Shown here piece by piece: positions 1-49,948 of a DNA stretch of 64,000 bases. Location: NCBI GenBank assembly GCA_008632985.1, contig QPGO01000023.1, forward strand, positions 403,266 through 467,265, given 5' to 3'. The translations under genes and the position numbers were made by a program. The notes under the pieces were generated by a model. It was not told the origin of the DNA, ran no database searches, and saw only the letters and a program-made list of their open reading frames with translations. The stretch's first letter is position 1. Every line of letters begins with the position of its first letter. This DNA is from Psammoneis japonica (taxonomy: Eukaryota).

Positions 1-3000
1 TTTCTGGCGGACTCTGAGCACCCTGACATCATTCATCAATGCTGTGGAGATGGACATGCTGCCATCAAGATGATCTTCTTTGACATCTCACCAATTTGGA
101 TGAAGCATCCACATGAGTTGATCAAGAGCCATCTGCACCAAAACAATCTTGCAATTCTTGGATGCTGTGCTCTGTTCAGAGACCACCTCCAGCTGCGGGC
201 AATTGTCTCCAACGTTGATGCTTCTCTTGATGACCCTGGAGAGCCAGACATTTTTCTTGGCAATGCTTGCTGTGGAGAATGCCTTCACCGTAAAACAGTG
301 GACGCCTGGGAAGACAAGAACAAGCAACACAAGTTCGCCCAGAAGAAGATTGTTGAAACCATCAGTGTGATTCTCAAGGAACAGGATGGCCCTGCTCTTT
401 GTGTCAAGGATCCTCCCAAATGCCCTCCACATTGTCTCCATGACTCGCCCAACCCTTCTCTTGCAGCTCCTGTTCGAGGTCTTGACTTGCTTCCTGCAGA
501 TGAGGTGTCTGCTCCACCTCCAGTTGTTGAGGAGACTCCAATCATGGAACCTGACCCTCCTGCTGCAGAAGAACCCATGGATGCCATGGAGCATTTTGTG
601 AATGAACTTGGTGCTGTGGACATTCCTGCTGGATGATGAAGCACATGCACCACATGGCATCTGCAAGGCGCGCATCTACAGGACCAAGTTTTCACCTGCC
701 ATTGCACAGACTCATCCGTGTGTGTTCCATGAGTGCCCTGCATTGAATGATGCTGAGCACCTGCACACCCACCCCACTTGGTTCTCCCAGTTTCTTCAAC
801 GTGATCGGCATGCTCGCAATGCACTCAAGTCTGACATGGCCAAGAAGGATTTTTCCTGGGGCCATTGTTGCGTTCGGGCAAACAATGCCACCCATCTTCA
901 TCCCATCCAAAACCTCATGCAAGTGGGGCAACTGTGAAAGAGGGTCCATCCGACTTGTTGCCTTCCACTGAAGCACCTCTTTCCCGTGTGTCATTGGGTG
1001 GGGAATTGCACAAGAATCCCAAAGTTTGTGACCTCTTTGAACAAGAATTCCAGCATGACATCTGTCCTTCTGGCGCTGGTGCATCCAGCCAATGTGGGCC
1101 TGTTGAACACTCACACTCAACTGTTGAGAACGCGATTCGTGCGATTTTAATTGGCGCCAACCTCCCGATTCGATTCTGGCCCTGTGCCTTTTGCCATTGC
1201 CTCCGCATCAAGAGTGCCACTCCTGTGAAAGATCAAGATGCAGCACCCATCACTCTTGCCACCAGAAAGGTCAAAGATTTTAGCACCCTGAAGACTTTTG
1301 GATGTCCAGCATGGTCCAAATGTTCCACTGCTTGTTCTGCTCCTTTCCGGACCAACTCGAAGAAAGGTGTCTTCCTTGGCCACCTCCCGAACACCCTGAA
1401 GAATGTCATGTGGAGGGATCCTGAGACTGACAAAGTCAAGACGGCCAAACATGTGCGCTGCAATGAAGGTGTGAATGATCTATTTTTTGGATCAACTTCC
1501 TCCAAATGCCATCCATTTGCAATGTGTGGAGAGAATGGTCAGCCTTTTCCGGCTGAAACACAGGACACAACTGTGCCCATGTTTGCTTCTTCATCAAATC
1601 CTTTTGCTGCGACCATTGCATGCACCATGAAACATCCTCACAGGGATCCTGCCTGTGGTTTTGGATTTTCCCAGTGCACCCTCATGGGCCGTGTCTGTGT
1701 TTCGGAAATCAAGCAGTGCAGTCCTGCGGCTTCCTTGTTCTCCTCTCTCCATGCTGCTTGCAACAAGATCATGGGTGCATGTGTCATCTTCATCAATGAG
1801 CGTGAAGTTTTTGCTCCACAGGATGCTGAGGAAGCCTCATCTCAGGTCTTCCATGTGACAAAATTCTGACCTTCGAGATTGCCTTTGCACCGGAACGACA
1901 TCTGGACTCCCGCACTCTCAACAAAGCATTTGAGGAAGCAGAGCTGTTTGAACCTGATTCCATGGAGGATGACTCTCACGCACCTGAACTTGCCTTGGAG
2001 GATGTCCAATCTGTTGCAGCTGTTCTCTGTCCCGAAGATGATTTCTCTGACAAGGCTGTCCCAATGGATTTTTTTCCATGCTCACCTCAGTGCGATCAGC
2101 TCCCGCTCTCTCGCTGCCCTTGACCATCTCACCCGTGCTGAGCTTCGTAAACTTGACAAATGGCCTGAATGGGAAGAAGGCGAGCAGCATCAATTGGACC
2201 AATTTTGTGCACTGGGCATGTGTGGTCCCCCTCAACCACGTCCTCCTGGAGCAAATGTCATGCATCCGCATTGGGATTGCATGGTGAAGCCTGATGGACA
2301 ACGCCATTCTCGGCAATGTGGAGATGGATCCAAGTCATCTGTGCCGGCTTTGCACAAGTTGACTTCCACCTGTTCATCATGTGTGGAACGCTCCATTGAA
2401 AAGATGTTCTTTGCTCTCAGCGCAGCTGTGTGTGTCCTGTTGTGTCTTTGGTGGCAATGCTTGGGATGCCTGTGCTCATTCTCCTGGTCCTTTGCAACTG
2501 GTTTTCATTGCCATCAATGATGCATGTGCTGCCTGGTGCAAAAAATGCTTTGGCAAGAAAGTGCCCTGCCACTGTGTTCTCCCACTCAAGCATGCTCTTC
2601 AAGGCCACCCTGAAGCTGGCGTCCTCTGGGAAAAGCATGTCAACTCGATCCTTGTGGGTGCAAAACTTCTTTTCCGCAATGCTGCCCATGACAAGTGCAT
2701 CTGCTCTGGTGAATGTGATGGTGTCAAGGTCCTGTTGCTCCATCAAGTCGATGATTTTGCACTTTCTTGTCCCTCCGAGAAGATTGCGAAAGAGATCTGT
2801 GACCATGTTGGCAAGGCTCTTCAGATGGAAAATGAAGACACTCCTCCATTCAAGCATTTGGGTTTGGTTTGCTGAATTCAATGGCATTGATGTCATCCAG
2901 AATGACGACTCAATTGCCATCAATGTTGCCAGTCACCTCGATCATGTTTTCAAGACTCATGGATGGGATGCTCCCACTGCGAATGAATCTGATTCTGACT

Positions 3001-4101
3001 TCAAAGCTGCTCCTGTGCTGGTTGATTGCATTTCTGATCTGTGTGCTGCTGAAGGCCCTGCTGAAGGTGCTCCCGAGCATGATGCTCTGTCGGAGTCCCA
3101 AGGTTTCTCCTGCCGTTCGGTTCTGGGTGAATTGGTCTTTGCTTGCTCGTGTTGATGCTTGGACATTGGTCGTCCTGTTGTCACTTTGTCCAAGTTCTCC
3201 AAGGCTCTGGCTGAACTTCATTGTGACTCTCTCAAGCACATGGCAAAGCATTTGTGGCACAGCAAGCATTGGGGTTTGACGCACAAGAAGGCCAAGTGTG
3301 ATCCTGGTCTTCCTCCTTGTGATTTTGAAGGGCTTGAGGATGATCCCTCTCTTCCTGACTTTCCTTGTGCCAATGATCTGTTTCAGCTTCTTGGTTTTAT
3401 TGATGCAGCTCATGCCAACGAACTTTGGCGTCGACGGTCTGCTGTTGGCTGCGCACATGTCCTTGCTGGTGCTGCGATTGGTTGCTGTTGTTGCGCCCAA
3501 ACGATTGCAGCTGCCAGTTCCATGGAAGCTGAATTTCTTGTGGCTGTTGCGGGTGCCAAGCAGACTCTCTACCTTCACATGGTTCTTGAAGAATTGGGAC
3601 TTCCCCAGCATGATCCTGCTCCCTTGCACATTGACAGCTCCTCTGCCATCCAGATGATCAACAACAAGGTGCCTGCGGAGCGATCCCGCCACGTTGATGT
3701 TCAACATTTTGCAATCCAAGACTGGCATGATGCAGGCAAGATTGTCACTCGACATGTCCCGGGTGTCATCAACCCCGCCGATGCACTGACCAAGGCTGTG
3801 GATTGGACACTTCGTTCCTGCCATGCCTGCCGTTTGATGGGGGACACTGACGTTGATTGTTGTCATGTTTGGCTTGTGGATCAAGTCTTGGGTGTGTTTC
3901 TTGTTTGTTTTTTGCCATTCTGGTCCTCTCTTTTTCACTCGGATTGTCTCTTTTCTTTCTTGATGAGCTTTTGCATTGCTCATCAGGGGAGGGTGACAGA
4001 CATCCGAGATGGGGAGCACACTCCCTTGTGTCGGACAGACTGGCATGGACAGCATTGGGAGATCCGATGATCTCTCCTTTGCTCACTTTCTTTCTCATCT
4101 A
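1..4101 (+). mobile_element. Degenerate Ty1/Copia LTR retrotransposon (diatom CoDi-like), 5' part outside window; integrase-RT-RNaseH order
   Basis: Integrase-like GGELHKNP...GPVEHSHSTVENAIRAILIGANLPIRFWPCAF (~990-1210); RT-like ALQGHPEAGVLWEKH and LLHQVDDFAL (~2590-2770); RNaseH-like SSMEAEF, HVDVQHFAIQDW, INPADALTK (~3510-3800); frameshifts and stops; polypurine tract aggggaggg (3985-3993) followed by TG (3994), the likely 3' LTR start. Confidence 0.92.
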
Positions 4102-5640
4102 CTACGAATTGCTGAACAATTGCGCGATACACGTGCCCGAACGGTGATTGTTGCTTCGGGCACGAAATTCGAGCTTCGCGCACGTAGAGACCGTAGAATA
4201 TGTACCAACATTCGAGAATGTCCGATTTGTGTAGATCACGTAGCACCGTACCACAGGGCGATCCAGGAAACTTCGAAGTTTCGAAAAATATACTAGAAGA
4301 TTCCTAATCCCTATCGATATATCTCTACGTGGACCTCGTGTAGGATAGACAAAAGCTTCGAACATTCTGAGGTTTCTGTCTCTATTGCCCTTAATATTGC
4401 CCCAGTGAAAGTTCGTAGTGTTCGAAGTTGTTCGAAGTGTTCGAATACTTCGAACACTTCGAAGTACTTCGAACATTTTCGAAGCTTTATATAATATCAA
4501 GTATCATATATAATTAATACTTTCTGATTTGTCAGCTTCCTCCGTATAACGTGGTAATGCTTCTACGAGTACGATATTTTTTTGTGTGCGAACGCGACCC
4601 TGACAGCGCTTCCGACGCGACAACATGTTGACACTACTGTGAGATGCCCCTGACTTGTCAATCAACCCACGAGGGATTGTGTGCCGTGTTGTAATGACAT
4701 CGTTCGACCCGTTTTTGCATTGACATCGTTGATGGAAGCTCGTCATTTTTCGTTTGTACGGGGTTTCACGTGGTTTGTCTCGACGACAATGGTGGAGCGG
4801 TTCTACAGACGACAAAATTGGATTTGAGGTGCTTCATCGTGGCATTTTTGACCCAAGTGGTCGACAGAGGACCCATGTATTGCTTGTAAGCGTCGAAATG
4901 AGTGGTTTTGGGCAATCGGCTTCCGAATTCCTGCCACCATGGTCGTGAAGCACGGCGTTGCACCATGACGTGATCAAAATCAAGCCAATTACAGTATTGA
5001 TAATGTACAGTGCCGAATAAATAATACGGGATAGATGATGTCATTTTTTTTCGTCCTTTATGTGATTGGGCAATACTGTTCCATTGTACGGTAGGTACGT
5101 ACTATTCGAAACGTCGAACTTGTTCGAACAAGTTCGAACTTTGTTCGAATAAGTTCGAAGTGGGCAAGAGGGCAATAATAATTGTTCGAACAATTAGACA
5201 CTTAGAATCAAAAGGATAAGAGGGCAATATGTTACCGACAAATATTCGAACACTTCGAACAATATTCGAAATTTTCGAACAACTTCGAACACAACAAATA
5301 TTTGTTCGAACTTTTATCTATTGCCCCTTGTTTAACTTGTACCAACCAGGTACGAGCTCTGCGCGTAGAATAATGTACAGAAATGTCATGGAATATAGAA
5401 TCTTTCGAAGCCTTTGAAGTTTCCTGGATCGCCCAGAGGTCATTTCCTGAAATTCCCGCGACGACTCATACGATTTTTCAATACCATATACTATGTAGAA
5501 TGGACTCTGCGCGAACGATGATTGTTGCTTCGGGCAACGATATTCGAGCTTCGGGCACGTGTATCGCGCAATTGTTCAGCAATTCGTAGTAGAGTGCACG
5601 ATTGTCATCTGTCCTAGAAATCCATTAGATTGTCCCTACA
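3994..5640 (+). repeat. Putative 3' LTR of the Copia element, split by the TIR insertion (3994-4101 plus ~5592-5640)
   Basis: TG immediately after the PPT; candidate ...ccctaCA end at ~5640; the 5' LTR is outside the window so the end cannot be confirmed. Confidence 0.45.
4102..5589. mobile_element. Non-autonomous TIR DNA transposon (~1.49 kb) with TA target-site duplication (Tc1/mariner-type)
   Basis: Perfect ~40 bp terminal inverted repeats ctacgaattgctgaacaattgcgcgatacacgtgcccgaa (from 4102) and its reverse complement ending at 5589; TA at 4100-4101 and 5590-5591; subterminal inverted repeat gggcgatccaggaaacttc/gaagtttcctggatcgccc; no recognisable transposase. Confidence 0.85.
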
Positions 5641-6112
5641 CCGCCAGTCCGTAAGTCACGACCCCCGGTGCAAGGCTCTGCACACTCACGGCGCATGCAA
5701 CACTGGCTGAAAATGAACAGAGTCAGCACCTGGCATGCAGAGGACAGCTGTTGTTTGCATGGTTTCTCTCCTTTTTTCTTTCTCTTCCCTTTTTCTTCGC
5801 TTCTCCTCCCTTTTTCTCTGTGTCCCATTCTTCGCGGCGCTTTGCGCTATTACGGTGTTCACCAGCTCTAGAGGGATCATACACTGTTCCCTGCTCTGGC
5901 AGAGCTAGCTAGTGGCTTTCTACAGCGGCTGCAGGCTGCTGCAGCTATCTGCAGCACGGAATTTTTGCCAGCCATCGCAACAGCCATCAGTCTTTTGTCT
6001 TTTCTGTCATCAGCAGAAGATCACCATACCCGGTACAAGTATACGGTACTACTAGAGCTACTCTAGCTAGGAAGCCATTTCGATAGAAGTGTACCTAACC
6101 TATTTTAAAAGT

Positions 6113-17721: not shown

Positions 17722-20700
17722 TCAGCTTCTCGCAAATTCGACAGAGCTTGTGTCACTGGTGGGGCTAACGAGATAGCTAGCAACCAGGCAGAGAGCCCTA
17801 ATCTTGAAGATCCTGAGGCGCACTTTGCTCGCAGGCACATACCACTGCTGCCACTGCTGTCTCTCCCGCAGCACTGATGGCCTGCCTCCAATCTGTGTCA
17901 AAGCCAATGGCCAAAATGAATGCCCCCTCCGTCAATTTCGCTCTTGGCGACGACTCCTCTTGACCAAGAAATATCACGCACTGCGTGGTTGCGCGTCGCG
18001 GCGTCGCTCGCTCGAAGATTTGGATAGAGTGGTCTGTCCCTCGTTGAGGACAGGCACTCTCTCAAAACATGCCGCAGCCCCCGGAACCATGAGGTTCTCC
18101 GTGCGGTTGTGTCAACACAAACTTATGTCTGTGATGCAGCATGGCATTGGCTCTTCCTTACCACTGCATTGACATTTGTTCACTTTGTCAGCCAGAGCTG
18201 TCGGCTTGTGCGCAGCACTGGTCAAATGGGTTCACCACAAACACAAGCCACACCACCAATTTTCTTCCTCCTTGTCCTCTGCTGCTGACAGCAGAGAAAC
18301 TGTGCTGGGCTGCATGTGCATGCATCAGCACTCAGGTTGAGCACACTTCTTTTGACAAAAGGAGTGACCAGAATGGTGCAGTGCTTCCAAGAAGTGGTGT
18401 TGTTTCCAAACATGCAATGGGTGGGGTGTGTGGGGGGGGAGAGCCGTGGCAGCAGCGTTGGCGGGCATTGGAGGAACACAAGCAGCCACACCCAATGGCA
18501 TCTGCCCAGCCATTGACCAAAATGATGTGAGCTTGGTTGGACCCCATTGCCACAATGCCTGGAAGGCATGCAGCCTCCCATGCCTGCACAATTTCACTGC
18601 CTCATTTTGTTGAACCCACAAGCCAGCCAATGTGTTGCGAAAAGGGGGTCCTTTGATGTTTCCTGTGCCACTCATTGCACTTGTCCTGGCTGCCATGGCA
18701 GATGTGGTTTTGCCCAAAAGCTCTCAACAACTTTGTCACCACAATGTGAAGGTGACAAAAAGTGTGCACTGGTGGTGCCATGATGCAACTTGTGTGAGCC
18801 AGATGATTTGCTCCAAAGAGCAAGCTAAAAAGCAGGTTCTTGGTGAGATCGGCAACGAACACACATTCATTCATCAGGTGTCACTGAATCCACCATGTCA
18901 GGATCTGAAGCATTTTCTCTTCAATGGGTGCACTTTGGGGTCTCTTGCATTTCCTGCTCATCCACATGCTCCAACACCACATTTCCCAGGGATGGGAGGT
19001 CACCGCCATCTCTCTCTTTTGTGCAAGTGGGGCAACCATGGCAGCAATGCCCCCCCAAGCTGAGGTGCAATGAAGTGTTCAGATCAGAAAACCAGCAGAG
19101 TCATGGGAGCTGATGTGGCAAAGAAGGAGCCATTGAGGTGGTGCAATGTGAGGAACATGTGCGGTGGTGCCCTCTGGCAATGTGCTCATTTTGACACTCA
19201 GGAGCAGGAGGGCACGTGTCAGAGCCACCTTTGGCCATCAACACACTTTGACAGGAACCACTGATGCAGGTCAGTTGCATGCTGAAGGAATGCCTTGTTG
19301 ACATGGTGGGGCAAACACAGACTGAACCTTGTGACAAAACACAGAGAACAGGCAAGCTTCCACTTTTTGGGTTCTTTGGGCAGCATGCTGCCATCAAACC
19401 ACAATGGACAGGGCTCTGCAATCACTTGGCTTTGGTCAATGTCAAAATGCCATTTCACAACAATGAGAGGTTGTTGACATTTGAAAAGTGTGCAAAGAGA
19501 AGCTTGCTGGTGCATTTGCAACCCCAGGCAAGGACCCAGATGACTGCATGTTGGAGAGAGGGAGAGCACAGCAATCTTGCTCAATGCTTTGCTTGCTTCA
19601 AGCATGTGGTGTGTGAGATTGTCAGCCAGCTGACAGCACAGCACCCCAATGATTTTGCAGAGGCATGCACAATTTTCTTGTCCAAAGTCTCTTGTTTCTT
19701 GCGTGCAGGTGTGCTCAGCTGGAAGCTCCCAGCATCATCAACACAGCTTTTTTGGACATGGAAGCACCATGGCAACAATCATGGTGAGAGAGAGGGTGTT
19801 GTTTCATCATCAAGGCAGATGCCAACACAACCAGCCAGAGAACCCTCCAATCAAACCACACCAGGATCAGCAGGAGGGTTGACATGTGTCCAATTCTGTG
19901 CATGGGTTTCAGTCTAAAAGAGAGCAGGAGGTTGTTTTTGCTCATGGTTGTGGGCAATGCTGGGAGCATGGGTGTGGTGGTGGGTCTGGGTGTGTGGCTC
20001 AACCTCCAGACCAGCCAGAAAGCAGTGTGGTCTTGGGCTGTGGCCATTGGCAAAGCAGTGGCTGTGTTGCAGATGAGTGTGGACAATCTTTTAGCTGCGG
20101 CAGCTGTCAAGGGCTGACTTGACTGCTCAGGGTGTGTGCAGCAACTGCTGGGCACACTGGCTTCTGACATGTCTAAGATGCGAGGAACTGAGTTGTGGAG
20201 GAGTGGGAAATGATTTCTTTGAGACTCCTCTGGGAACGCTGCAGTCAAGAAATCACTCCAGCAGTTGTCAAGGCAAGTGGTGAGCTTGTTGGGTTGAAAC
20301 AAACAGAGGTGGTTGGCATCAATGACAGCTGTCATCACTGAGTCAAATCCATCTGCTGGCACACCCCCAAAATGTTTTCACACAATGACTTGGCTGCTGA
20401 GCAATCATTTGGGCCACACATGGGTCTCAACTCACTGAGCTGCACCCTGTCACAGCATTTGTCAGAAGTTTGAGTGGCAAAAGGCCCCTGCAAGTTGCAA
20501 GTGCAAGCACCTGGCCAAGAGAGCTGCAGGGGCAGTGTCCCTCTGCTTCAGATGTCGTGGACAAATGCTTTCTGCACCTTCTTCCGGCCAAGGCACTTTT
20601 TAGAGTGGCTTTTGACTTTGCAATTTTTTCCTTGCTCTTTCTGTGTCATTTTGAGATGTCCTCTGAGAGACCTCCCCAAGCACACTCCCCTGCAAAGCCC

Positions 20701-20834
20701 CACTGCCACAGCAGCTTTGCAGCCACCTGCACAGGAGCACCAATCACAAAACATGCTGTGCTCACAACAAAATGGCAGCCAGCACCAAAAAAGATTTGGC
20801 AAAAAGCAGCTCTCTTGTCTTGTTGAGCTGCCTC

Positions 20835-20835
<1 letters not shown>

Positions 20836-20872
<37 letters not shown>
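20836..20872. repeat. (CA)n microsatellite
   Basis: About 18 contiguous CA/AC units. Confidence 0.95.
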
Positions 20873-20874
<2 letters not shown>

Positions 20875-23165
20875 CCAGACACAAGTGCTTCCACAGCTGC
20901 TGTCACAATGGGAGTCATCATGGCTCTCAGACTGGTCATGCAGAAATTGTGCAGGACAGCGCCGAAAACAGTCATTGTCAGTTTGTCCATCTGTCCATGT
21001 CTGAATGTTGGTTTCTTGGGAAATCAATTGAAGTGCCATCTGATCAAAGGCATTGCTGTTTGCCATGTGAGTCAAAGTGCCTTTTGACGTTTCAAATGAG
21101 TTCCTGCAAAATCACTGGCTCCAATCACTCTGTCGTGCGACACCATTGTGCGCATTTCTTCCACACAATTTTGCAATTTTCCTCATGCAAAATGTCAATT
21201 GTGACTTTGATGCAACATTTTCAAATGACCCCCATTGTGCCAACACTTCAAGGTTTGATTCTTTTTTCAGTGAATGTTGCTGCTCTCACCTGTGCTGCTT
21301 TGGCCACTGAGCTTGCCATGTGCCCAAATGTTTTGACGTGCTTGCCACATGCCCACCCCCATCGTCCAATGAAAAAACATTCCAGCACCCAACCTTTTGC
21401 TGTGGCCTTGTGTGGCTGCACCACATTTGCTGCACCAAAAGCAGAAACAAGTGCAATGACAGCCCAACAACAGCAATGTCCTGAGCCCAAAAGTCCAGCA
21501 CCCAAACACAGGAAAATTGGTCACAACATCTGGTGCTGGGGCAACAGTCTGACATCGCACATGCACGCAGGCAAAACATGTCATTCTTGCCCATTGCGCC
21601 AAACATTTTTTGTTCTCATTTAAATGCAACAAGCATGCAAACAATGTTCCTGGCAATTTCAATTGTGACACTTGGCCACTTTTCACCACACGACAAATTG
21701 CTTTCCAGTCAATCCCCAATTCACATCACTTGCAAACTCTGCTTTGCTTGTTGTTTGAGGCCATTCTTGTTCTGGCATTCAAATGACATCCTGTCTTTAA
21801 TCCATTTTTTGTTGCTGCTGCTGTGAGTTGAATTCTGGTTGACTTTGCTGCTGTCATTGTGTGCTGCTTGCTGGCAAACATCGCCACTCTTCTGTCTGCA
21901 TGCTCGTGCATTCCTTGGCTGCTGCTGTGGGTTGCCATTCACTCTGCCTTCTCTTGAACCCACTTGCATTGAAGGACTGTTGTCCATGGCTGCTTTCCCG
22001 GAATCCCTTCCTCTGCTTTCCCATGTGCATTGTTCCTTCTCACTGCTTCCCTTTTGCTGTTGCTTCAATCAGTTTTTGGAGCAGCCCATCCCTTCATGCT
22101 GTCCTTCTTTCCTCTTTCTTTTCCTGCCATGCGCACTCTCTGTTTTCTTCATCTGCTGGTGCTGTGCATTGACTCTGGCTTTCTCTGTTCTTTCCTCCAC
22201 CACCGCATTGTGCACAGCTTGTTGCGCCATTCAATTCTTCCACTCTGGTTCCGTCCTTCATTGATCCAAGAACTGGGCCGCCAATGAATGCATCTGCAAC
22301 TCACATTGTCTGCACACCCAATGGTTGCTTCAATTGCAGGATTTTGAGATGCCTGCCGCATCTTCAGTCATGAATGCAAAGAACAAGAGCACTGCTTTTT
22401 GGTCGTGCACACCTGCTCTCTCTCTCACTTGCTTGCTTTTTCTTCCTTGGTGGTGGCATTGTTGCCGCAAACACTGAGCAACATCAACACTCAATGATGT
22501 GGTCAAGCAATCGTGTAAAACAGCAATGACAGCACAGATCTGTTGTCATGTCGACACGACATGACAAGATGTGAAGCATCATGGCAACACTTCTTGTTGT
22601 CCATTGTTGTCAGCACGATGTTTTGTCAGGAATTTGGAATCTCTGAATCCGATCCAGTTTCAACTGTCGACTGCCAGGTCTACAGTGATGGAAGTCATTC
22701 TGAAGCGATCCGATCCGGCGATCCGATCCGGCCGGCACGGCTCACCATGTGCAGCAGGGCCCTGCCAGCTGCCAGGGTTGCTCAGCAGTGCCAATGGACA
22801 GCTTGCCGAGCTTCATTTTTGGCATGCCAGTGGAAACTCAATGTGTTTTTACATGCAACAGTTCATCACACATGCTGGGGAAATCACGAACTCTGCGAGC
22901 TCCAACACGAGAACAACATGAAGCACGAAGAGGTTGCGAGAGAGTGAATGTCATTGCCAAAACACTGTGAATGCAAAGTGCAAAATGCCAAAACATTGTT
23001 GTCACATGACACACAGATGGTGAGTCTGTCGACAGACAAAACAAATTGCCTTCAAAGCTGGTCAGAAGCTTCAACAGACTGCACAGCTGTTTGCATGTTG
23101 TTGGGTCGCCCGCGTCGCCCACTTTGAATCATCATTCTCAAATGATCACCATGGCCAACTCCCCC

Positions 23166-23860
23166 CACCAATGTTGCTGATAACTTCTCTGCCAAGTCAC
23201 TGTTCAATTCCACCTGTGCTCTCTGCAGCAGAAGAGCAAATGATGAGACTTCCAGCTCATCCCCAACAAGATGACAACGCCGCCAACTCGACAACTCTCC
23301 AGCATTCCCGTTTCAGTCACAGACTTCACCAATGTTGCTGATGACTTCTCTGCCAAGTTGCTGTTCAATTCCACCAATGCTCTCTGCGGCAGAAGAGCAA
23401 ATGACAAGACTTCCAGCTCGTCCAACAAGATGACAACACCGCATGCCGCCGAGTTGACAACTCTCCCGCATTTTCATTTCAGTCGCAAGTTTGTCATGTG
23501 ACTGGTTGACATCCACAACCAGTGATCTTTTTGGAAGTGTTGCTTGTTTGCACCCACAAAGAAGAGCCCTCCAAACTGCTGCTGCATGGAGAAGAGGACG
23601 ACAAAGCAACCAGTCACAGTTCCTCATCCACAGAGAGCAACACACCTGGCATTCAGAACAAGTCCTCCTTGGGCTCGGGCTGACTTCACTGTCAAGCCAC
23701 CAATTTTAGCTCTGCTGAGTCATCCAAACCGGTTGTGTTTGTCATGACACTGCTAAAGTAACTTCCAATGTGGCCAACGCGTCATTTGCGGTTCTTGCAT
23801 CCACAGAAACACATTCAGGGCAAGTGCTCCTTGGGCTCCAGCTAACTCCGCCGTCATGCC
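23166..23860. repeat. Degenerate ~161-bp tandem/direct repeats
   Basis: 23166-23326 aligns with 23327-23490; ~23650-23700 aligns with ~23812-23860. Confidence 0.75.
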
Positions 23861-39100: not shown

Positions 39101-39913
39101 GCTTCGCAGTCTACCTCTCCCAAATTGCAGTATGCGGCGGTGTCGTTTCTGACCAAGGTTGTACCGTTTGTAATGAGCTCTGGTGTTGACGCTGCTGTCT
39201 CGCCGGCAGAACTCGCGGAGGTTTTCCACTCTGTTTTGAAGGGGTCTCAGGACCATGAGGCGCCATCAAAGCCGACAAAACGGGGAAGCGCACGCGATGT
39301 GAATAAGCTGCCCAAATCCACGGGATCGGCCAACAACCTTCTTCATAGCGCTGTCATTTCGGGAATCGAAGCTGTTTTTGATTGTGTCGATGCAGATGTC
39401 CAATTGGCTCTGCTGCAGGATGTGTCTTCTCGGTTTACAAAGTTGATCAACAGTTTTACGGTTGGCCGAAGTGTGGCGTCCGAGTGCGATCGAAGCAACG
39501 GTGGTCTCTTAGCCTGCAACTTGACGTCTCTTATTGTTCTCGCCCGTGCAAAGGACTCAGCCCACGATGTCCTATTGAACTCGGAATTGGCCATGTCCAT
39601 GGTCCGCCTTGTTCAGTGGCACTACGATCCGAAGCTATCGGCACAGGAGAAGACTGATATTTTTTGGAAGGCTGCCGCTACGCACAGTCTTCAATTCTTA
39701 TCGTTTGTGAGCCGAAACGACGACACGTTGGCAAGGGCTGGCGTTCGTCTGCAAGACTTTGTCGGGGCTTCACTGATGGTATCGAGGCCTGGAAAGGCTC
39801 CGCGAAAAGCGCCCGACTTTGTTTTTGCCCTCAGAAGGGCTGAGGAAGAAGGCGTGGCTGCGAATGCTGTTGCTGCTAGGCGAATCAAAGAGAGGATCAG
39901 CTTGCTTGAGTGA
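33181..39913 (+). CDS. Large WW-WW-FYVE protein with long ARM/HEAT-like helical region (~2200 aa); 3 exons
   Basis: [28 protein letters not shown] and [31 protein letters not shown] (WW); [17 protein letters not shown]...VRVCDLC (FYVE); introns ~36097-36179 and ~36448-36533. Confidence 0.85.
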
Positions 39914-40100
39914 AACCCGCGAGATGACTATATCCAAAATATATGAAAGCCAGAGGCTAAAGCAGACACGTTTTAGAGGTAGTATTTTAACTTGCATATC
40001 AAAGAAGCTATGGTAGGGCATTACCATTGAATCTCTTGTTGTTGTTAGAATTACTTCCCAGATCCCAGACGCGTCAACTTCGCTTTTCGGGAGCATAAAA
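39900..40100 (-). pseudogene. Duplicated 3' end of the carbonyl reductase gene plus its downstream flank
   Basis: 39900-40095 aligns with ~42643-42826 (cttgcttgagtgaaacccgcgag...ctatggtagggcattaccatt..atctcttgtt); encodes LPKSEVDASG versus LPKSEFDASG. Confidence 0.8.
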
Positions 40101-41259
40101 ACCCTAGTGGCTTTGTCGTCGGCATTCTTCTGTTCCTCCAGGACCACAAGTGAATACGACGAATCGATAAAAATATGCAGGCGATCAGCGCCGAAATAGC
40201 CCAGCACATGTCGACGACAAGCCTTGGGGCATGCCGCAACGAATACACCAGCATGGACCCCAGGCAAGCAAGTATGCAACGACATTGCAAGCGCTGTGAC
40301 CGTCATCGTAGTCTATTGACATACGCACGGAATAAGTTACACACAAGTAAAGATTGCTATATTGCACTTTATATTTTCTATTTCTATTGGAAAAGTTTCA
40401 AAGAGTCAAAAGTTGCTATTGAAATCGGTTGCGTAGGGTAACGTTGCCTCAAGAGCGCCATCAAAAGATGGAGCTCAAGCTTTTACGCATCTTCAGAGTG
40501 AAAAATATCACTCTAAAAAATGTAAAAGGGGGGACGTACTACGGAGACGACAAGTAAACTTGCGAGTCAACCGCGTGCTAAATCAACACTCCCTACGAGT
40601 GAAGACTTACCGTATCATGTCACTGATAAGACGGAACCCCAAACCCCGCGTTCCGTCAACGGTATGATCTGCTTGGCGAGCTTTTGCTGCTTCACAGACG
40701 AACGCTGCTGTCTATTTCAACAGCCGTGACCTGACGGGTCAAGCGAACAGGCAACTTCCTACGGTCAAAGACACAGGAGTAACATGGACTCCGGGCCGGA
40801 GACACGCATTCGATTTGCCCCGACCTCCGGACTTAACTGGCAACACCTACGCCACCTAGAGACAACACGCCATCAAGCAAAATGAGTTGTGGAATGCCAA
40901 ACAAATGCAAGGTCTCGATCCGGAAGAAGGGCGAGCCATCCTTTGGCGATAACGGCATTCAGGCTTTGGCAAACAACAAGCACATGGTGCGAGACGACGA
41001 CGAGTTGTGATCGAAAAACGAGTGGATTCTCTGAGATTTTGTTCGAGTCATGACCGTTGCTAAATTTCTCAATCACTATCATTTTTGTGTACATTCGTAG
41101 AATTAATACCATGATTTCGTATGTAGAAGATTGGTTGGAACTCGGTACTTTCAAAATTGTACCAATTCCTACGTACACTTTACGGTAACCGTAGAAAAGA
41201 AACTGCCGACAGTGACGTCTTCGCGGTCGAGGTCCGAGCTCCAGATTAAAGCAGGCTGA

Positions 41260-42175
41260 CAAAAAGGACTTTTCTGCCATGCTCTCTCAGTGCAGTAGAG
41301 AGGGCTAGCAGCAGCCACCAGATCAAGGCATGATGATGATAAAGCTCTGTGTTCTGACTGAAGTTAGGAGCTTCAGTTCTCCAGGTGATGGGTGTGACAC
41401 AGCTTGCAATCTCTGGAGCCAGAGCACTGCGCGTGCAGCCGAGCTCCTTCATCATGGCTGGTCATGGGCTCAAAAACAATGTGCCCATGCAACAAGTTGT
41501 CATGTGGGCAGAGCCAAAGAGAGCAGTGAGGGTTTGTGTTTTTTGGTTGGGGAAGTTCACTTCTTGTCATGGAAAGAGCCGTCATTGTCAAGAGACAACA
41601 ATGGCGTGTCAAAAGTCTTTGATGCCAAAGAAGCCACAGCTCTTCTCTTTCATCATGAGAGATGCAATGTGCTGTGGTCAACCACACATGGCTTTCTCTT
41701 GAAACAATGTGCAGCTGGCCTTGAGTCAGCTTCAATTTGTTGTTGCTCACAGCTTCCACTGGCCCGCATGGGTTGCGCATGTGGCCACCCTTTTTTGTCA
41801 CTGATTGTGTCTCCAGGATGATCTGAGTTGGTGGATGTTGACATTTCCCAGTGGGATTTCTTGCTGACATCATGGGGAGCTGACCCATGAAGAACTGGCA
41901 ACCTGCTGACCCTGTTCTTTGCAAAAAGGTGCAATTTTTTGCATTGAAGTTGCCATGAAGCTCCTCAGGAATTTGCTGAGGGTGCATGTGCCAAAGAAGC
42001 AAATGTGCAGATTGCCTTGTGTGGCTTGTGAGTGGCTGATCATTTCCAACTGCAGCAGATTTTGCAAGCTTTGTCAGCCTGAACACTGTTTTGAGCTCAC
42101 CTTTTCTAAAAACAGCAATGAGAGCAAGGATGACAGTGAGGCCTCATTTTTCAAAAAAAAAAAAAAAAAAAGTTG
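41260..42175. repeat. TpA-depleted decayed repeat ending in a poly(A) run (42153-42171)
   Basis: Near-absence of TA; A19 tract; family not recognised. Confidence 0.55.
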
Positions 42176-42180
42176 GGATG

Positions 42181-42390
42181 ACTGGCACGGCTCTGCGTGT
42201 TCAAAGCCCTTCTTGGCCGCTGGCAAGAGGCAAGAGCAGTTCATTGGTGGAGCTTACGACAAAGAGAGCAGTTTGCACAAAAACAAAAAATAACTTTCGT
42301 GGCACACTGAGGTTCAAGGTGCATGGAAGCAACAACACCAATGGCAACAATTCGTTGCCAAGGACCACGGGGCATGGTGGCATGAACAAA
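42181..42390 (-). pseudogene. Mutated fragment copy of the membrane-protein gene at 49112-49948
   Basis: Aligns with 49300-49495; still reads FVFVQTALFVVSSTNELLLP versus FAFVQTALFVVSSANELLLP. Confidence 0.9.
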
Positions 42391-42760
42391 CGGCGCATCT
42401 CACACAACGCCACACCCACACGACATCAACGCTGGTCGATGTGCGGAAGTGTGGTTCACACTGCTGCTGCTCGCACTGCTTACCTGGAGACTATTTCACC
42501 TACCGTATCATCCTCCTCTTGCCCCAAATAACAGAATGACTATGCCGGAACAACCGCCCGCAGATACTGTTATTCCTCGTAGAGATCGGAATCGATCGAC
42601 GATTTCGATGATATCGCAGGGAGTACGTCGATCCATTGTGTCTTGCTTGAGTGAAACCCGCGAGGTTGACTCTCCAAAATATATGAAAGCCAGAGGCTAA
42701 AGCAGACAAGTTTTAGAAGAAGTATTTTAACTTGCATATCAAATTAGCTATGGTAGGGCA

Positions 42761-43717
42761 TTACCATTTAATCTCTTGTTCTTCATAGAAATACTTTCCC
42801 GACGCGTCAAACTCGCTTTTCGGAAGCGTTGCCAACAAGTACGGCGTGAAAGCGCCCCGTTCAGCCTTGACGAACCCTTGATTGTTGTTTTGGTCAGTGG
42901 CGCAGTACCCAGGATCAACAGCATTACACATAATGTCTGGATATGTTCTGGAAAACAACTTGGTCATGGCAATTATACCAAGTTTGCTCATTCCATAGCA
43001 AGTGTTTGGATAGCCCTTGTCAGCATGCGTACCGCCCTGAACTGCTTGGACAAAATCTTTCATTAGAGCCTCAAGAGCATCTAGAGTCAAATCTGGCGAG
43101 GTGACGGTCTCTACAAGATCTTTTGATTTCAGAATCGCCAGTCTACCGGCGGCACTAGCTATATTGATAATTCGAGGCGACTTGGAGCCGCTTGACTGAA
43201 GCAATGGAAGCATCGCCTGGGTAACTCTTAACGTGCCGAAAAAGTTGGTTCGAATAGTGATATCAGCTTGTTCTTCGAAAGGCGTGTATGCAACCTTGCC
43301 ATATAGAGTCGGATCATTGAAACAAATTGCCGCATTGTTTATGAGTACATCAATGTGTCCGTACGTCTCCTTGACAAACTCAGCGGCGGAAGTAATGCTG
43401 TTTTCGTCTACAAGGTCAAGTGTTACTTGAACGACTTTACTAGTCGATTGACAATCCTTGGACAATTCATCACATGCTTGTTTTCCCAACTCGTCATTAC
43501 GACATGCAATAATTGTGACCGTGTTTGGATCTTGGCTGAGACGATGTGCGATTTCCTTTCCGATGCCCTTGTTGGATCCCGTCACTAGTGCAACTCGTTG
43601 TGGCGGTGCTGCTGAAAATCCTATAGCAGCTCGTATGCTCAAGCGCAAAAGCAGAAGAGAAAAGAGCAACAGGTGGCTGGAAGTGCAGGTGCTCCTTTGG
43701 TTGTGTATGGCCATCAT
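42761..43717 (-). CDS. Classical SDR, carbonyl reductase (CBR1-like), putative plastid-targeted
   Basis: VALVTGSNKGIG, IDVLINNAA, TNFFGT, YGMSK catalytic motif, VDPGYCATD; signal peptide AAIG-F. Confidence 0.9.
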   Translation of the reverse strand: MMAIHNQRSTCTSSHLLLFSLLLLRLSIRAAIGFSAAPPQRVALVTGSNKGIGKEIAHRLSQDPNTVTIIACRNDELGKQACDELSKDCQSTSKVVQVTLDLVDENSITSAAEFVKETYGHIDVLINNAAICFNDPTLYGKVAYTPFEEQADITIRTNFFGTLRVTQAMLPLLQSSGSKSPRIINIASAAGRLAILKSKDLVETVTSPDLTLDALEALMKDFVQAVQGGTHADKGYPNTCYGMSKLGIIAMTKLFSRTYPDIMCNAVDPGYCATDQNNNQGFVKAERGAFTPYLLATLPKSEFDASGKYFYEEQEIKW

Positions 43718-44040: not shown

Positions 44041-47000
44041 CAGGAGGAAGCATGAAAGCAACAAGCTGTGCGCTGCAACTCTCGGAGTTGAAGCTCATGC
44101 AGTGCGATTGTTTAAATTCGGCTGACGTCATGAGGCCAACACAAGGTGCACAAAATGTGACAGTGAATAAAAACCATTTGTTTCCCCACCACATTTTCCT
44201 CTGCGGTTTCAAAATCTTGCCGTTTTTGAAAAATCCATTCACAAATCGCCGCAACGAAATCACCAGCGACATTGGTGCGGGAACAATGATGTGGGTGGCA
44301 CCACAGGTGTGAAGGAAGTGCACACGAACCCCACCTGCGGAGCATTGGAACCCGTCTGTTGAAGGCAGAGAGTCCGCTCCAGTGTGGAGAAGGATCAAGC
44401 ACTTCTCTTCAGCTTCATCATTCAAGAGAAATGTGATGATTGAAGCCTTCTTTGTCCCTCATGCACCAGCGCTCTTGTGCTGTTGAAATCGGCAGCACAG
44501 GTGTTGCCACGGCTGTTGAAACAGACAGCAGCATTCATCTGCAAAACAGCAAAAGCTTGCTGAGCAGATCATGCCATTGATGAAACACAGGGTTTGGGGT
44601 TCTGTCATGTCAGCAACATGGTGCGGCAAGTCTTCACTTGCAGGGAGTGTTGATTTGGCGCACGCAGTTGACTCGCAAGTTCTCTTGTCATCTCCGCAGT
44701 GCGCCCCCCCCTCTGTTTCTTTTTTTGGATGGTGATCCACCTGGAAAATTGGAAAAAGCTTGAGTGCCATCTTTTGATGGTGCCCTTGAGACAATGTTGC
44801 CCCACACAATGACCAATTTCTGTGTCAACTTTTGACATTGGTGTGTCTCAATCTCTTGAAACTTTCTTTGAAACCACTTTTTCCAATCTGCAGAAGTGGG
44901 AAGATGAAAAGCAAAGTGCAGCAATCTTTGTTTGCGTGCAAGTCATTCCACATGTGCACTGACAGACTGTGGTGGCAGTTGCAGTGCTTGTGATGTCATT
45001 TCTGTTTTTCACCACTTTGTTCTCTTGTTCTCTTTCCTTTTCAGATGGGGTCCACAACGGGGCAGGCATTCATTGCAGTGTGCTTCAAGATGATGTGTGC
45101 TGGGCCATTTCAGCATTGATCATCTGTGTGTTTTCCAATTGATTCGGCATTTGTTGTCAGGGAGTTGCGATCGTTCTGCCAAACTGGTGGAGCAACAGAA
45201 GAATGCCAATTTTCTAAAGAAGCTGGCTGCAAGTCTAGAACACTCTCCAGAGACAAACAAAAGATTCTTTTTTTTTTGCAAGTTCATTTGTGAGATGGCG
45301 CCATGACTCGTTCATCCTCAACTGGCTGGACAATGTTGAAAGCCTTCTTGAGCTGAACAACCAAACCATCAAATGATGCCCGTGTCAGGGTTGAGCAGAG
45401 GCTGTGAGATGAGTTGAATTGATGACTGCGTTGAACATTGGGATTGTCTTCATTGACAATCTTCATGGCCACAGACAATCCCTTGCAAGCAGTCTCCTGC
45501 TCCCAGCCATTGCTCTCAATGGAGGTCACTTTTCCAACATGTGGTCCTCCCAGGGCTGGGACACACAATGGAGTGTCAACTTTGAGAATGCCTTCCGTGA
45601 CTTTGACACCAACAATGTTTTGGATCCTTTTGGTTGAAAATGTGTTGAGGCAAAATGTTGATGATGCTGGGAAACAAAGTGACTCTTTTGGGTAAAAAAA
45701 TGCAAATCAAGTGTGAGTTGATCAAGCAGACCTGCAACTGCTTGTGTGCAACAAAGCATGTGGTTGCCACTTGCGCTGCTGCCTCTCTCATCTGCAATCC
45801 ACTGGAGTTTGTCCATGAACCTGGCAGACTGATCAAACTGGTGGTGGACAATCTCATTGGCGTGTTCTCAGGCCTTGCGCTCAATCATCAACTCAAAGAA
45901 TGCAAGGAATGCAGGGCACTCCAGACAGCCTCTCTTGTTCACAATGAAGATTTTTGTCACATCACGTTTGTGCGCTGCTCCAACTCCAATTTTGCATTCA
46001 AGGGTGTTGGAGGGTTTGCATCTTCCTGCAAGAACCACAGGAGCACTTCAAGTGTGCCCAAGGTTGAGGCTTGGACCATTGTTCTAAGACAGTCAGACCA
46101 CAGACAACAAGTCTGATGCACAGGACTGTCGACAGGGTTCCTCCAGCCATGACCTTCTTGAGTCCATTTCCAAAACTCTTGACACCAAGTGCCCCTTTGA
46201 TTTCTTTATGATGCATGCAGTCTGTTCAGACTTGATGTGCGTTTCTTGGCTTGGCAGCAGCATCAGCATTTTGGTGACAATTGGGCCATCCGCTGTGCAG
46301 TGCATGGTCTTGTTGCCCTCCTGTGCTCATGGGATGGCAGCCATTCACCTCCAGAGCATCTGCACTTGTGCCCAATCACAAGTTGGTCTGGTGTTGAACC
46401 ATGTCACAAAGCAGCATCAAGACACCTTGAACTCCCTCTCCAGTCACAACCGACATTGATGCAAATGGGACAGAGTCAGAATTGGTCTAATCTTTGTCTC
46501 CCATTTCCCAGTGCAAGTTTGAGACAAGGCCCTGTTCCTGCAGTGGAACCTCTGCTTCTACAGAATGACTGGAGACCTCTGAAATCATCATGTGCTTGGG
46601 GCGATCCTTGAGAGCATCTTGAGTTGGAGTGTCTTTTCACATCTTCCAAGCACAGCACCTGTCCACCTTGTTCAATGAAAGGACAGCTTTGTCTGCACAG
46701 CTTGTTGAGACTTTTGATTGTCTGCTGTCACAAACCATTCATGAGATTGTCATCTGGAGTGGCAATGTTGCAAAGGGATGATCCAAGAGAACAAAGATTG
46801 GCAAAGGACTCATGGACTGGTGCATCAATCACAAACATTCCCCAAACTTTGCTGTCAAACTTTTCCCTTTCATTGAGCTCAGCCTGGTTTGGTGGCTAAG
46901 AATCAATTGTTGGAAGCATGTTGCTGAAATTTTCTGTGCAACACCACCTGCTCATTCTGTTTTGTGCTTCATTGAGCTCCCAAGACAAGAAAGGAATGTC

Positions 47001-48640: not shown

Positions 48641-49111
48641 CACGTGTAAGTTAGAAGTTCGGCACATCTGGACGACTCTTCGGCGAGGGTCTGTCTACAT
48701 AAAGTACAAGAGAGTCTTTAAAGTACCGGTAGAACAGGACTACGCCAAAAGACTTTCCATTAGGCTCTAAAAGTTGATATACATTTCCTGTGTACAAGTC
48801 GACGAAGGTAAGGAAGTAGCAGTTACCGTCTTCAGGGTTGATGAAAAGGTGTTCATCCTGCAGTCGGGTACGAGCACATCCGAGACACCACTGCACAAGA
48901 TTTCATCACTAATTTTTGAATGTCGTCAGATTCCTTAGATAATTATTAAAGATGTAATCTAAAATCTATGACACCGTCTTGTCGTTTTGAAAGTACGACG
49001 TAGCATGCAGATTCGGTGCCGCCAGTTCAAGGGTCTCTGCCTAGCTAATGTAACTATGTCCGCTCGCTTGAATTTCATGCAGGTCGATGCAAAAGAGACT
49101 TGACAAATGCT

Positions 49112-49948
49112 TTACGCCACCTTCTTTTTGATGACGGACGCAGACGTCTTCTGATGATACCAACAGATGCAATACGTCGCTGCAATTCCAACACCCAAGA
49201 ATCCGTCATAGGTCAAGTGGCCACCCAATGCCATGACGCCACGAGTACACATGGTTGCTTCCGCCCAGGCCACAAGAGTCGACGGGAATCCAACCACAAC
49301 CGGTACGACTGCGTATTCAAAACCCTTCTTGGTGGTTGGCAAGAGTAGCTCGTTGGCGGAGCTTACGACAAAGAGAGCAGTTTGTACAAAGGCAAACCCA
49401 AACTTGCGTGGCACGCTAAGGTGCATAGAAACAATAACCACAGCAATGGCAACAATTCGTTTCCAAGGACCACGGGGCATGGTGGCACGAACAAATGAGA
49501 TCCAAAACACGCAAAACAGAAAAAGCTCAAGGATGACTCGAGGCGGAGACAATGCCCCACCTCGCATGTCGTCCAAGTGGCTCACTTCGGGATCAGACAT
49601 GAATCCGTCTCGCATATTCTTGCCGATGAATCCGTGCGCCAAGCCGTGAATAAAGTGAGCCACCGCGTTGCTGATTAAAAACTTGTTGGCATCCGCCATG
49701 CCGTCGGAAGCGTGACGCATCTTGCGGTAGAGTACACACATGATTCCACAGACAAACGAATCAAAGTAGAAACAAAGATCATGGGAGGTCCAGTAGTCCT
49801 TGTTGGCGTTGGCGATGCAAAACCCATTTTCTTTCCAGACCGGGTCGAACTTATTCCACTCTCGCGCGACTGCCACGGCATAGACCGCGGCGGATAGAAA
49901 GGAAAGCATGTTGGCAGTATCGCCTACCTTCTCATACGACAAAGTCAT
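49112..49948 (-). CDS. Multi-pass membrane protein of unknown function with His motifs
   Basis: Intact 278-aa ORF with normal Tyr/TA usage, several hydrophobic helices, SHDLC, HGLAH and GGHLTYD motifs. Confidence 0.75.
   Translation of the reverse strand: MTLSYEKVGDTANMLSFLSAAVYAVAVAREWNKFDPVWKENGFCIANANKDYWTSHDLCFYFDSFVCGIMCVLYRKMRHASDGMADANKFLISNAVAHFIHGLAHGFIGKNMRDGFMSDPEVSHLDDMRGGALSPPRVILELFLFCVFWISFVRATMPRGPWKRIVAIAVVIVSMHLSVPRKFGFAFVQTALFVVSSANELLLPTTKKGFEYAVVPVVVGFPSTLVAWAEATMCTRGVMALGGHLTYDGFLGVGIAATYCICWYHQKTSASVIKKKVA

Follow-up and report, generated by a model that had tools for sequence, protein, structure and literature searches.

What has removed almost every tyrosine from the Copia polyprotein encoded at the start of a stretch of the genome of the pennate diatom Psammoneis japonica? 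The stretch (64,000 nucleotides, assembly GCA_008632985.1, contig QPGO01000023.1, positions 403,266 to 467,265 of the forward strand) is called the window here, and all positions refer to it. An earlier note, made from the letters alone, had seen cysteine or histidine in conserved Copia pol motifs where tyrosine is typical, and had explained them by transitions within TA dinucleotides. Our analysis confirmed the replacement of Tyr by Cys and His, and it supports the TA transition as its interpretation. We think it likely that the window from position 1 to ~4097, and on to ~5850, holds a defunct member of a multi-copy family of diatom Ty1/copia retrotransposons, and that nearly all TpA of this copy were turned into TpG or CpA by a TpA-specific mutation process.

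The three frame pieces of the window's pol region were aligned to 50 intact, full-coverage relatives, and columns with Tyr in at least 60% of the relatives were taken as Tyr columns. At these 29 columns the window carries Cys 16 times, His 6 times, Arg and Phe twice each, and Leu, Thr and Tyr once each. The Cys codons were TGT (9) and TGC (7), the His codons CAT and CAC (3 each), and the sole surviving Tyr codon of pol is a TAC at 3570, in the piece that encodes the reverse transcriptase (RT) C-terminus and RNase H. A stricter cut (Tyr in at least 80% of relatives, 19 columns) gave 11 Cys, 4 His and 1 Tyr. In a leave-one-out control the 50 relatives kept Tyr in 86% of cells on average, and Cys or His occupied only 20 of 1446 Tyr-column cells, with a maximum of two per relative (Fisher p = 2e-31 for the Cys/His excess in the window). 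Other conserved residues were largely kept in the window copy: Trp at 12/12 columns, Gly at 38/44, Glu at 18/21, Leu at 43/56 and Phe at 28/37. Over its whole length the conceptual pol contains 1 Tyr in 965 residues and 5.8% Cys, compared to 2.7-5.4% Tyr and 0.8-2.0% Cys in the relatives.

The six strings quoted in the earlier note are all present on the + strand, in frame 1 or frame 3 (Table 1). As sites at which Tyr is typical, those in GGELH (Tyr in 39 of 50 relatives), FQH (50 of 50), FWPC (47 of 50) and FSC (41 of 50) stood up to the comparison, whereas GVFLGH, AFC and HVDVQH turned out not to be diagnostic. The GVFLGH column is Phe in 33 and Tyr in 16 relatives; at AFCHC, the first Cys corresponds to His in 37 and Tyr in 10, and the second to Tyr in 18, Trp in 14 and Phe in 7; the final His of HVDVQH lies in a column with His in 20, Tyr in 14 and Phe in 12, His being common there in intact relatives. 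The claim that Tyr should be lost specifically to Cys and His, the two outcomes of a single TA transition, held for 22 of the 28 losses, which are thus far from evenly spread over the amino acids, and intact relatives rarely show either residue at these sites (20 of 1446 cells). With Cys or His at 22 of 29 Tyr columns of the window, the protein level does lend the TA-transition process the support that had been read into it. Part of the Cys/His excess has a different origin, because CpG decay of Arg CGY codons also yields Cys and His; at 49 conserved Arg positions the window has Cys at 9 and His at 6.

The cause of the Tyr loss is visible in the DNA. The Copia element contains 8 TA in 4080 bp, an observed over expected ratio (o/e) of 0.03, and the corresponding ratios are 1.76 for TG, 1.55 for CA, 0.38 for CG, 1.26 for AA and 0.88 for AG; none of AA, AT and TT falls below expectation. 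For 148 of the 236 substituted conserved columns a single-base change is the unique explanation, and from these the base changes were counted. Inferred A>G changes numbered 45, with 37 following a T, and T>C changes 14, with 9 preceding an A; C>T amounted to 21 (16 before G) and G>A to 27 (12 after C). In the proposed process, an A that follows T would become G on either strand. A hit on the sense strand would turn TAY into TGY (Cys) and a hit on the antisense strand TAY into CAY (His), and such a process would erase tyrosine because both Tyr codons are TAY. Across codon borders it would convert NNT|ACN to Ala and NNT|ATN to Val; Thr is replaced by Ala at 13 of 32 and Ile by Val at 9 of 38 conserved columns, which we ascribe to the same A>G-after-T rule. 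The replacements expected from Ile ATA, Leu TTA/CTA and Val GTA codons, namely Ile by Thr (3), Leu by Ser (1) and Val by Ala (1), were few. The process would also remove TAA and TAG and leave TGA as the only stop in any frame. Both strands of 1-4097 together contain 201 TGA, 6 TAA and 4 TAG, and long open reading frames (ORFs) run in every frame because TAA and TAG have largely been mutated away. Among the long open frames on all six frames is an antisense ORF of 381 aa (2910-4055, - strand), and gene callers are likely to report such false genes.

The direction of change, from TA to CA or TG, can be observed directly in DNA and without any protein comparison in repeats with one TA-normal and one depleted copy. 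The TA-normal copy at 40405-40728 has 17 TA and 22 CG, its depleted homologue at 44508-44836 no TA and 7 CG. The 17 TA align to CA (8), TG (5) and other dinucleotides (4), the CG sites to TG (9), CA (6), CG (6) and CC (1), and TG was kept at 16 of 19 and CA at 15 of 20 places. In a second pair (49309-49495, normal; 42193-42390, depleted), seven TA align to CA (3), TG (2), TA (1) and AG (1). A control pair of two TA-normal copies kept TA at 12 of 14 places. A TA-normal repeat pair at 39901-40094 and 42642-42827 (89% identity over 186 aligned bases) flanks the third depleted block (Table 1); together with the two normal/depleted pairs, it suggests that the repeats from 39.9 to 49.5 kb belong to one larger structure that has been rearranged.

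To compare the window with related elements elsewhere, metagenome contigs were scanned with an alignment of 30 relatives, which yielded 79 loci, 77 of them distinct in the Tyr-column test. Over the matched parts, TA o/e ranged from 0.25 to 0.89 with a median of 0.62, and none of the loci came near 0.03; on the sense strand, TG (o/e ~1.5) natively exceeds CA (~1.15). Cys or His was found at 12 of 368 Tyr-column cells in the 17 intact-looking loci and at 212 of 1266 (Cys 128, His 84) in the 60 broken ones, and over all 77 loci TA o/e and the Cys+His share were inversely correlated (rho -0.41, p 2e-4). Tyr loss was strongest in L063 (Tyr 4, Cys 10 and His 7 of 25 columns), L067 (7, 16 and 4 of 28) and L079 (8, 13 and 6 of 28). 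For one family, 36 distinct copies were aligned over 1.6 kb, and the majority consensus, which has 59 TA, served to polarise the changes. L063 was changed at 42 of these sites and L067 and L079 at 39 each, compared to 3-26 in the remaining copies, with A>G and T>C at TA in ratios of 23:19, 22:17 and 21:18, respectively. Outside TA, A>G and T>C were no higher in these three than in the other copies, and the low-TA tract of L079 stops at the element end. Conversion is partial in the environmental Copia copies and near saturation in the P. japonica genome. The loci L063, L067/L069, L079, L036, L023 and L071 are partly hypermutated, and the same Copia family has many TA-normal copies at 80-90% DNA identity; the partly mutated loci represent intermediate stages, from which context and strand can be measured. 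Two further loci, L008 (an open frame of 921 aa, TA o/e 0.36, Tyr kept at 20 of 25 columns) and L077 (TA o/e 0.39-0.43, Tyr at 17 of 22 columns, 2 stops), possibly belong to a lineage in which TA is natively low except in Tyr codons, perhaps as an adaptation to a TA-directed defence.

Hits fall on the two strands in about equal number. The TG/CA ratio is ~1.0 in four of the depleted blocks of the window and 1.38 in the Copia element. A sense-strand bias, which the latter value might indicate, was rejected: host ORFs reach 1.48, the relatives natively have more TG than CA, and the other blocks lie at ~1.0. The hit rate depended on which base lies 3' of the targeted A (0.36 for C, 0.31 for T, 0.17 for G and 0.16 for A; p 1e-5), as counted in the six environmental copies with the most mutations. 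Surviving TA in the window are consistent with this preference. In 29.2 kb of depleted DNA 90 TA remain, among which TTAA is over-represented 6.4-fold and CTAA 3.6-fold, two contexts in which a purine follows the A on both strands; ATAT and ATAC have no survivors, compared to 108 and 202 occurrences in normal DNA. A preference at position -2 (the base before T), suggested by the survivors, was discarded, as it reached only p 0.08 in the polarised data and the 3' base explains both sets. Double hits from TA to CG were seen once in 352. The excess of Cys over His in the window copy (16:6) can be attributed to the preferred T-A-pyrimidine context. As this preference predicts, a purine precedes most His outcomes, 5 of 6 compared to 5 of 16 Cys outcomes (p 0.056). 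The 5'-T-A-Y preference resembles the U33-A34 setting of the tRNA wobble adenosine.

The Copia element is one of five depleted tracts in the window. TA o/e in these tracts is 0.0-0.17 and TG and CA mostly reach 1.5-2.3, compared to a TA o/e of 0.3-0.8 in the host DNA between them; the G+C content of the blocks (0.46-0.50) is that of the rest of the window. TA-free runs such as 3570-4100 and 48002-48647 end sharply, with one TA every 5-40 bp beyond. At the first of these edges lies an element with terminal inverted repeats (TIR) at 4098-5593. It does not belong to the mutated element and has normal TA and CG content (TA o/e 0.57-0.82), and on its right side the TA-free tract breaks off sharply where the TIR element begins. 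The process is restricted to repeat and pseudogene DNA, has sharp edges and leaves neighbouring host genes untouched. It is also separate from the decay of CpG to TpG and CpA that acts on the same blocks, because CG o/e varies from ~0.03 to 1.0 among equally TA-free stretches and TA loss is uniform. The fifth block illustrates this, with 177 CG in 52000-56000, 25 in 60000-64000, an A-rich part at 56000-60000 and uniform TA loss throughout; it is probably a nest of several elements, since its sub-blocks differ strongly in CpG loss and A/T skew. A Pfam search with stop-to-stop ORFs of the depleted blocks (131 of at least 100 aa, and 150 of the 164 of 55-99 aa) returned only SH3_retrovirus and GTP_EFTU_D4, and 18160-23700, 41366-42480 and 50000-64000 were without a match.

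GTP_EFTU_D4 (E 2e-7) belongs to a pseudogene of the translation factor eIF5B within the fourth block, which also matches eIF5B chains in the PDB (E 1e-7) and, in tblastn, aa 423-986 of the relative P0245. The pseudogene begins at ~aa 423 of this 986-aa relative and has several frameshifts and no intron-sized gaps versus the protein. At the six consensus Tyr columns of 38 eIF5B relatives it carries Cys (3), His (2) and Phe (1), and the 10 aligned Tyr of P0245, its closest relative, correspond to Cys (6), His (3) and Arg (1). By these alignments, the pseudogene is a second, host-derived target with the same Tyr footprint. It may be either a retrocopy or a transposon-captured fragment.

The retrotransposon itself was recognised by its relatives. 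A search with the RT C-terminal and RNase H part found P0001-P0004 at E 1e-51 to 1e-66, and aa 480-1426 of these proteins are colinear with 997-3842 of the window in tblastn (997-2424 in frame 1, 2444-2869 in frame 2, 2871-3842 in frame 3; 40-46% identity overall), which gives the Ty1/copia order integrase - RT - RNase H. Relatives found with the RNase H part, and then with P0001, carry the Pfam domains RVT_2, gag_pre-integrs and SH3_retrovirus, and the named ones come from the diatoms Nitzschia inconspicua, Fistulifera solaris, Cylindrotheca fusiformis and Fragilaria crotonensis. The order of domains is common to the window copy and these diatom elements, but the window copy is non-functional and its own RT goes unrecognised by Pfam. 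Its RT and integrase fall below the Pfam thresholds: SH3_retrovirus (E 4e-8, in the 955-2431 piece) was the only Copia domain found in the window's own ORFs at E<=0.1, with no match to RVT_2 (PF07727), a domain that all close relatives carry. In-frame TGA codons lie at 1867-1869, in the integrase/SH3 piece that also contains the GGELH, FQH, FWPC and GVFLGH motifs, and at 3153-3155, in the RT/RNase H piece. Upstream, P0032 and P0036 match 25-627 in frame 1 (aa 366-551 and 336-487), and their next match begins at 949-997, ~420 aa further along the protein; the gag remnant is followed by an internal deletion of ~0.9 kb, through which both the protease and the integrase's N-terminal part have been lost. 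TA o/e in the gag-side remnant is 0.03-0.04. Diatom Ty1/copia elements are known as the CoDi groups, to which this element may belong.

The stretch was found in one DNA run, in the form of contigs, and in no RNA run. In this run, 1679 contigs align to window 1-6000 at a likeness of at least 80%, and word depth over the element is ~600-2700, compared to ~57 in unique flank; the Copia family therefore has tens of copies, about 20-45 judging by contig depth. Of the places at which they differ, 1113 are transitions (A>G 218, T>C 338, C>T 293, G>A 264) and 364 are transversions. Some contigs of this run (X1) join 4099/4100 straight to 5593-5597, i.e., they represent empty sites, and therefore the TIR element is an insertion into the 3' end of the Copia element. 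The long terminal repeat (LTR) is presumed from these joints and from the word depth of ~15000 at 4001-4200, the only two hints, as the 5' end of the element lies outside the window and the 3' end is split by the insertion. Beyond the insertion, 5652-5848 is free of TA, and four TA lie within 5615-5652.

Table 1 Features of the window and strings quoted in the earlier note.
Feature	Position	Strand	Remarks
gag-side Copia remnant	1-660	+	cut by window edge; tblastn of long relatives P0032, P0036
Integrase core C-terminal part, SH3-like domain, linker, RT start	955-2431	+	frame 1; tblastn P0001-P0004
GGELHKNP	997-1020	+	quoted string
FQHDI	1048-1062	+	quoted string
FWPCAFCHCLRI	1174-1209	+	quoted string
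GVFLGHLP	1366-1389	+	quoted string
RT core	2432-2869	+	frame 2, frameshift near 2431; tblastn matches 2444-2869, 50-53% identity
RT C-terminal part and RNase H	2871-3851	+	frame 3, second frameshift; tblastn 2871-3842, 45-50% identity
FSCRSVLGEL	3105-3134	+	quoted string
HVDVQHFAIQDW	3690-3725	+	quoted string
3' non-coding part and start of presumed 3' LTR	3852-4097	+	no TA; LTR presumed
TIR element inserted in Copia 3' end	4098-5593		younger; 44-bp perfect inverted repeats at 4098-4141 and 5550-5593
Copia 3' end continuing past insertion	5594-5850	+	empty-site joints; right limit uncertain
Second TA-depleted block	18160-23700		11 TA, 78 CG in 5541 bp; no Pfam match on ORFs
Third TA-depleted block	41366-42480		holds mutated repeat copy 42193-42390
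Fourth TA-depleted block	44169-48646		12 TA in 4478 bp; holds mutated repeat copy 44508-44836
eIF5B pseudogene	45329-46951	-	frameshifted, 5'-truncated, inside fourth block
Fifth TA-depleted block	50000-64000		56 TA in 14001 bp; runs off window; no Pfam match

Several known processes introduce transitions into repeats. In Neurospora and other ascomycetes, repeat-induced point mutation (RIP) changes CpA to TpA and enriches TA. The signature described here is like RIP in its repeat-confined, near-saturating dinucleotide transitions, which destroy transposon frames and leave neighbouring genes intact. However, its polarity is opposite, as TpA is removed instead of raised and CA and TG are enriched 1.5-2 fold; moreover, some repeat copies are mutated and others not, and the multi-copy TIR element is untouched. 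ADAR edits one strand per molecule, with a loose preference for 5' U/A and 3' G. As in ADAR and APOBEC3 editing in animals, deaminase-type transitions inactivate retroelement copies and are fixed in the genome. Unlike with ADAR, the 5' T is strict, the 3' pyrimidine is preferred, A after A is unedited and the hits fall on both strands rather than on one; the APOBEC3 change is C-to-U, seen as G-to-A on the plus strand, which differs from the change in the window. Diatom transposons are methylated, and decay of methylated CpG by deamination of 5-methylcytosine yields TpG and CpA and feeds Cys and His from Arg CGY codons; it is present in the same blocks. CpG decay, however, cannot remove TA, and CpG loss varies ~30-fold among the blocks, whereas TA loss is uniform.

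The closest match comes from the chlorarachniophyte Bigelowiella natans. According to the preprint text, two integrated viral regions acquired A>G and T>C changes in mutation-accumulation lines of this alga, and these changes fell only at TpA (Mettrop et al. 2026, bioRxiv 10.64898/2026.01.13.699255). The targets described there are integrated DNA of nucleocytoplasmic large DNA viruses (NCLDV) and of virophages, an ADAT2-like deaminase is proposed by the authors, and clusters depleted in TpA and rich in CpA and TpG include RT and DDE genes among the depleted ones (bioRxiv 10.64898/2026.01.13.699255). As far as the text of the preprint goes, the changes in both systems are limited to the A:T pair of TpA and yield TpG or CpA depending on the strand, and in both they are confined to foreign or repeat DNA, with normal mutation outside it, clustered long-term TpA depletion, gain of CpA and TpG, and RT genes among the depleted. 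They differ in the host, here a pennate diatom and thus a stramenopile, and in the targets, here an LTR retrotransposon family and a host-gene pseudogene instead of the viral inserts described in the preprint. Depletion is near saturation in the window (o/e 0.03) versus 0.45 given there for the B. natans NCLDV region, and the T-A-pyrimidine preference is measured here, whereas we found no flanking-base analysis in the preprint text, figures and supplements aside. Conversely, mutation was seen in real time in B. natans by the same account, and the signature in the diatom is known from sequence alone. A literature search for TpA hypermutation returned no report for diatoms and only the Bigelowiella preprint. 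By this comparison, the signature matches that of the Bigelowiella process and is the chemical mirror image of fungal RIP. New here are the second eukaryotic supergroup lineage, the retrotransposon and pseudogene targets, the saturation, the measured flanking preference and the simple protein-level read-out.

We would place the action on double-stranded DNA already integrated in the genome, where it would serve as a defence in mirror image of fungal RIP. Following the proposal made for B. natans, the chemistry would be deamination of adenine to inosine, with a TadA/ADAT-like enzyme as the agent; on both points we lean on what the text of the preprint reports. Whether editing might instead precede integration is the main question to be weighed. 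Much as APOBEC3 or ADAR do, an adenine deaminase could act on retrotransposon RNA and/or single-stranded cDNA in the particle; copies would then insert already mutated and undergo no further change in the chromosome. Both Copia and the 5'-truncated eIF5B pseudogene without intron gaps could have passed through RNA, the depletion edges coincide with element ends, and the depleted tract contains a DNA-type TIR element with normal TA. We nevertheless judge this main rival to be unlikely, as TG and CA outcomes are near parity, whereas RNA editing alone would give only TG and editing of minus-strand cDNA alone only CA. A TA loss of ~95% or more in one passage would be extreme, and a frameshifted, deleted copy cannot recycle unless helped in trans. 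The o/e values of 1.26 for AA and 0.88 for AG are unlike a loose 5' U/A preference of the ADAR kind. In B. natans, moreover, the preprint text has the signature arising in integrated DNA in culture, with DDE transposases among the depleted genes.

The remaining explanations are contradicted by the controls. That the Copia lineage or the repeats of the genome natively avoid TA by selection, e.g., to evade a TA-reading nuclease, with Cys and His being functional, seems very improbable. A few environmental relatives do have lowered TA (o/e 0.25-0.43), and L008 combines 0.36 with an open frame, but low-TA copies with strong Tyr loss are broken and intact-looking relatives keep Tyr (Cys+His 12/368). 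The window copy itself has two frameshifts, two in-frame stops, the ~0.9 kb deletion and an RT without RVT_2 match, it has lost Tyr at columns invariant in 50/50 relatives, and non-coding DNA, the eIF5B pseudogene and unrelated blocks are equally depleted. Just as improbable is a general pressure from AT to GC (such as GC-biased gene conversion among copies) or plain old age, which would lack dinucleotide specificity. Transitions do dominate the differences between copies (1113 of 1477 places); however, block G+C (0.46-0.50) equals that of the rest of the window, AA, AT and TT do not fall below expectation, hypermutated copies have no excess of A>G and T>C outside TA, and there is no parallel between TA loss and CpG loss, which usually serves as the clock of methylated repeats. 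We give least credence of all to an error of sequencing, polishing or assembly that rewrote TA in repeats. Repeats are prone to assembler and polisher error, and the only DNA run with the stretch is probably the source sample of the assembly, which is also a point against our own interpretation. Yet the sequence recurs in short-read-derived contigs (0 differences over 348 bp; 72% of words), independent metagenome assemblies show the same footprint, and the changes follow codon-independent dinucleotide rules with sharp biological edges such as the insertion site.

Further points weigh against a TpA-specific process acting on the integrated element. The sharp, element-sized edges, the TA-normal TIR element and the TA-normal copies of mutated repeats would also fit pre-integration editing or the youth of unmutated copies. 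Three of the five depleted blocks are without identity from the Pfam search of their ORFs, and both identified targets could have had an RNA stage. Ancestral states are taken from a consensus, the closest intact relatives being only 40-46% identical in protein. Polarisation by the family consensus can be confounded by subfamily structure, and the hypermutated environmental loci lie mostly on contigs with a common name prefix, so that they may stem from few organisms.

A TpA-specific mutation process remains our preferred reading, and it carries several consequences. If it is correct, TpA-directed A-to-G hypermutation is not peculiar to one chlorarachniophyte and proceeds to saturation in diatoms, major marine primary producers, and a second, chemically opposite RIP-like defence becomes a general question for eukaryotes. 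The strict 5' T, the preferred 3' pyrimidine, the action on both strands and the independence from CpG decay would provide handles on the enzyme. For annotation, depleted tracts lose Tyr, TAA and TAG, and domain searches would miss transposons (two Pfam domains in ~29 kb of depleted DNA); gene callers would see long false ORFs in all six frames, and divergence-based dating of insertions would be wrong. A count of Tyr to Cys/His replacements against intact relatives, together with TA o/e, would make a simple screen for any genome or metagenome. More tentatively, diatoms may possess a dedicated defence that mirrors RIP, in which a DNA adenine deaminase with 5'-T-A-Y specificity saturates integrated repeats, and which could be homologous to the Bigelowiella pathway and ancient across stramenopiles, alveolates and rhizarians; this wider scenario is conceivable, though we would not yet call it probable. 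Such a defence would shape repeat composition, strip genomes' repeats of two of three stop codons and could select active elements towards low TA.

The surroundings of the depleted blocks are those of a compact eukaryotic genome, with genes for PDS5, CwfJ, a P450, an HMG-box protein, MIOS and a WW/FYVE protein between them. For a host NmrA-like protein, the database contained no identical sequence; the best named matches, at 58-63% identity, are from Cylindrotheca, Nitzschia inconspicua and a Bacillariaceae metagenome-assembled genome, which points to a pennate-type diatom. The TIR element at 4098-5593 is non-autonomous and has many internal repeats with TTCGAA, and its ends are very abundant in the contigs of the sample, at a word depth of ~15000 versus ~57 in unique flank; other copies of the Copia 3' end have empty sites in its place. 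Tandem direct repeats were seen at the right edge of the second depleted block, at 23166-23321/23327-23487 (84% identity) and 23650-23783/23812-23945 (71% identity).

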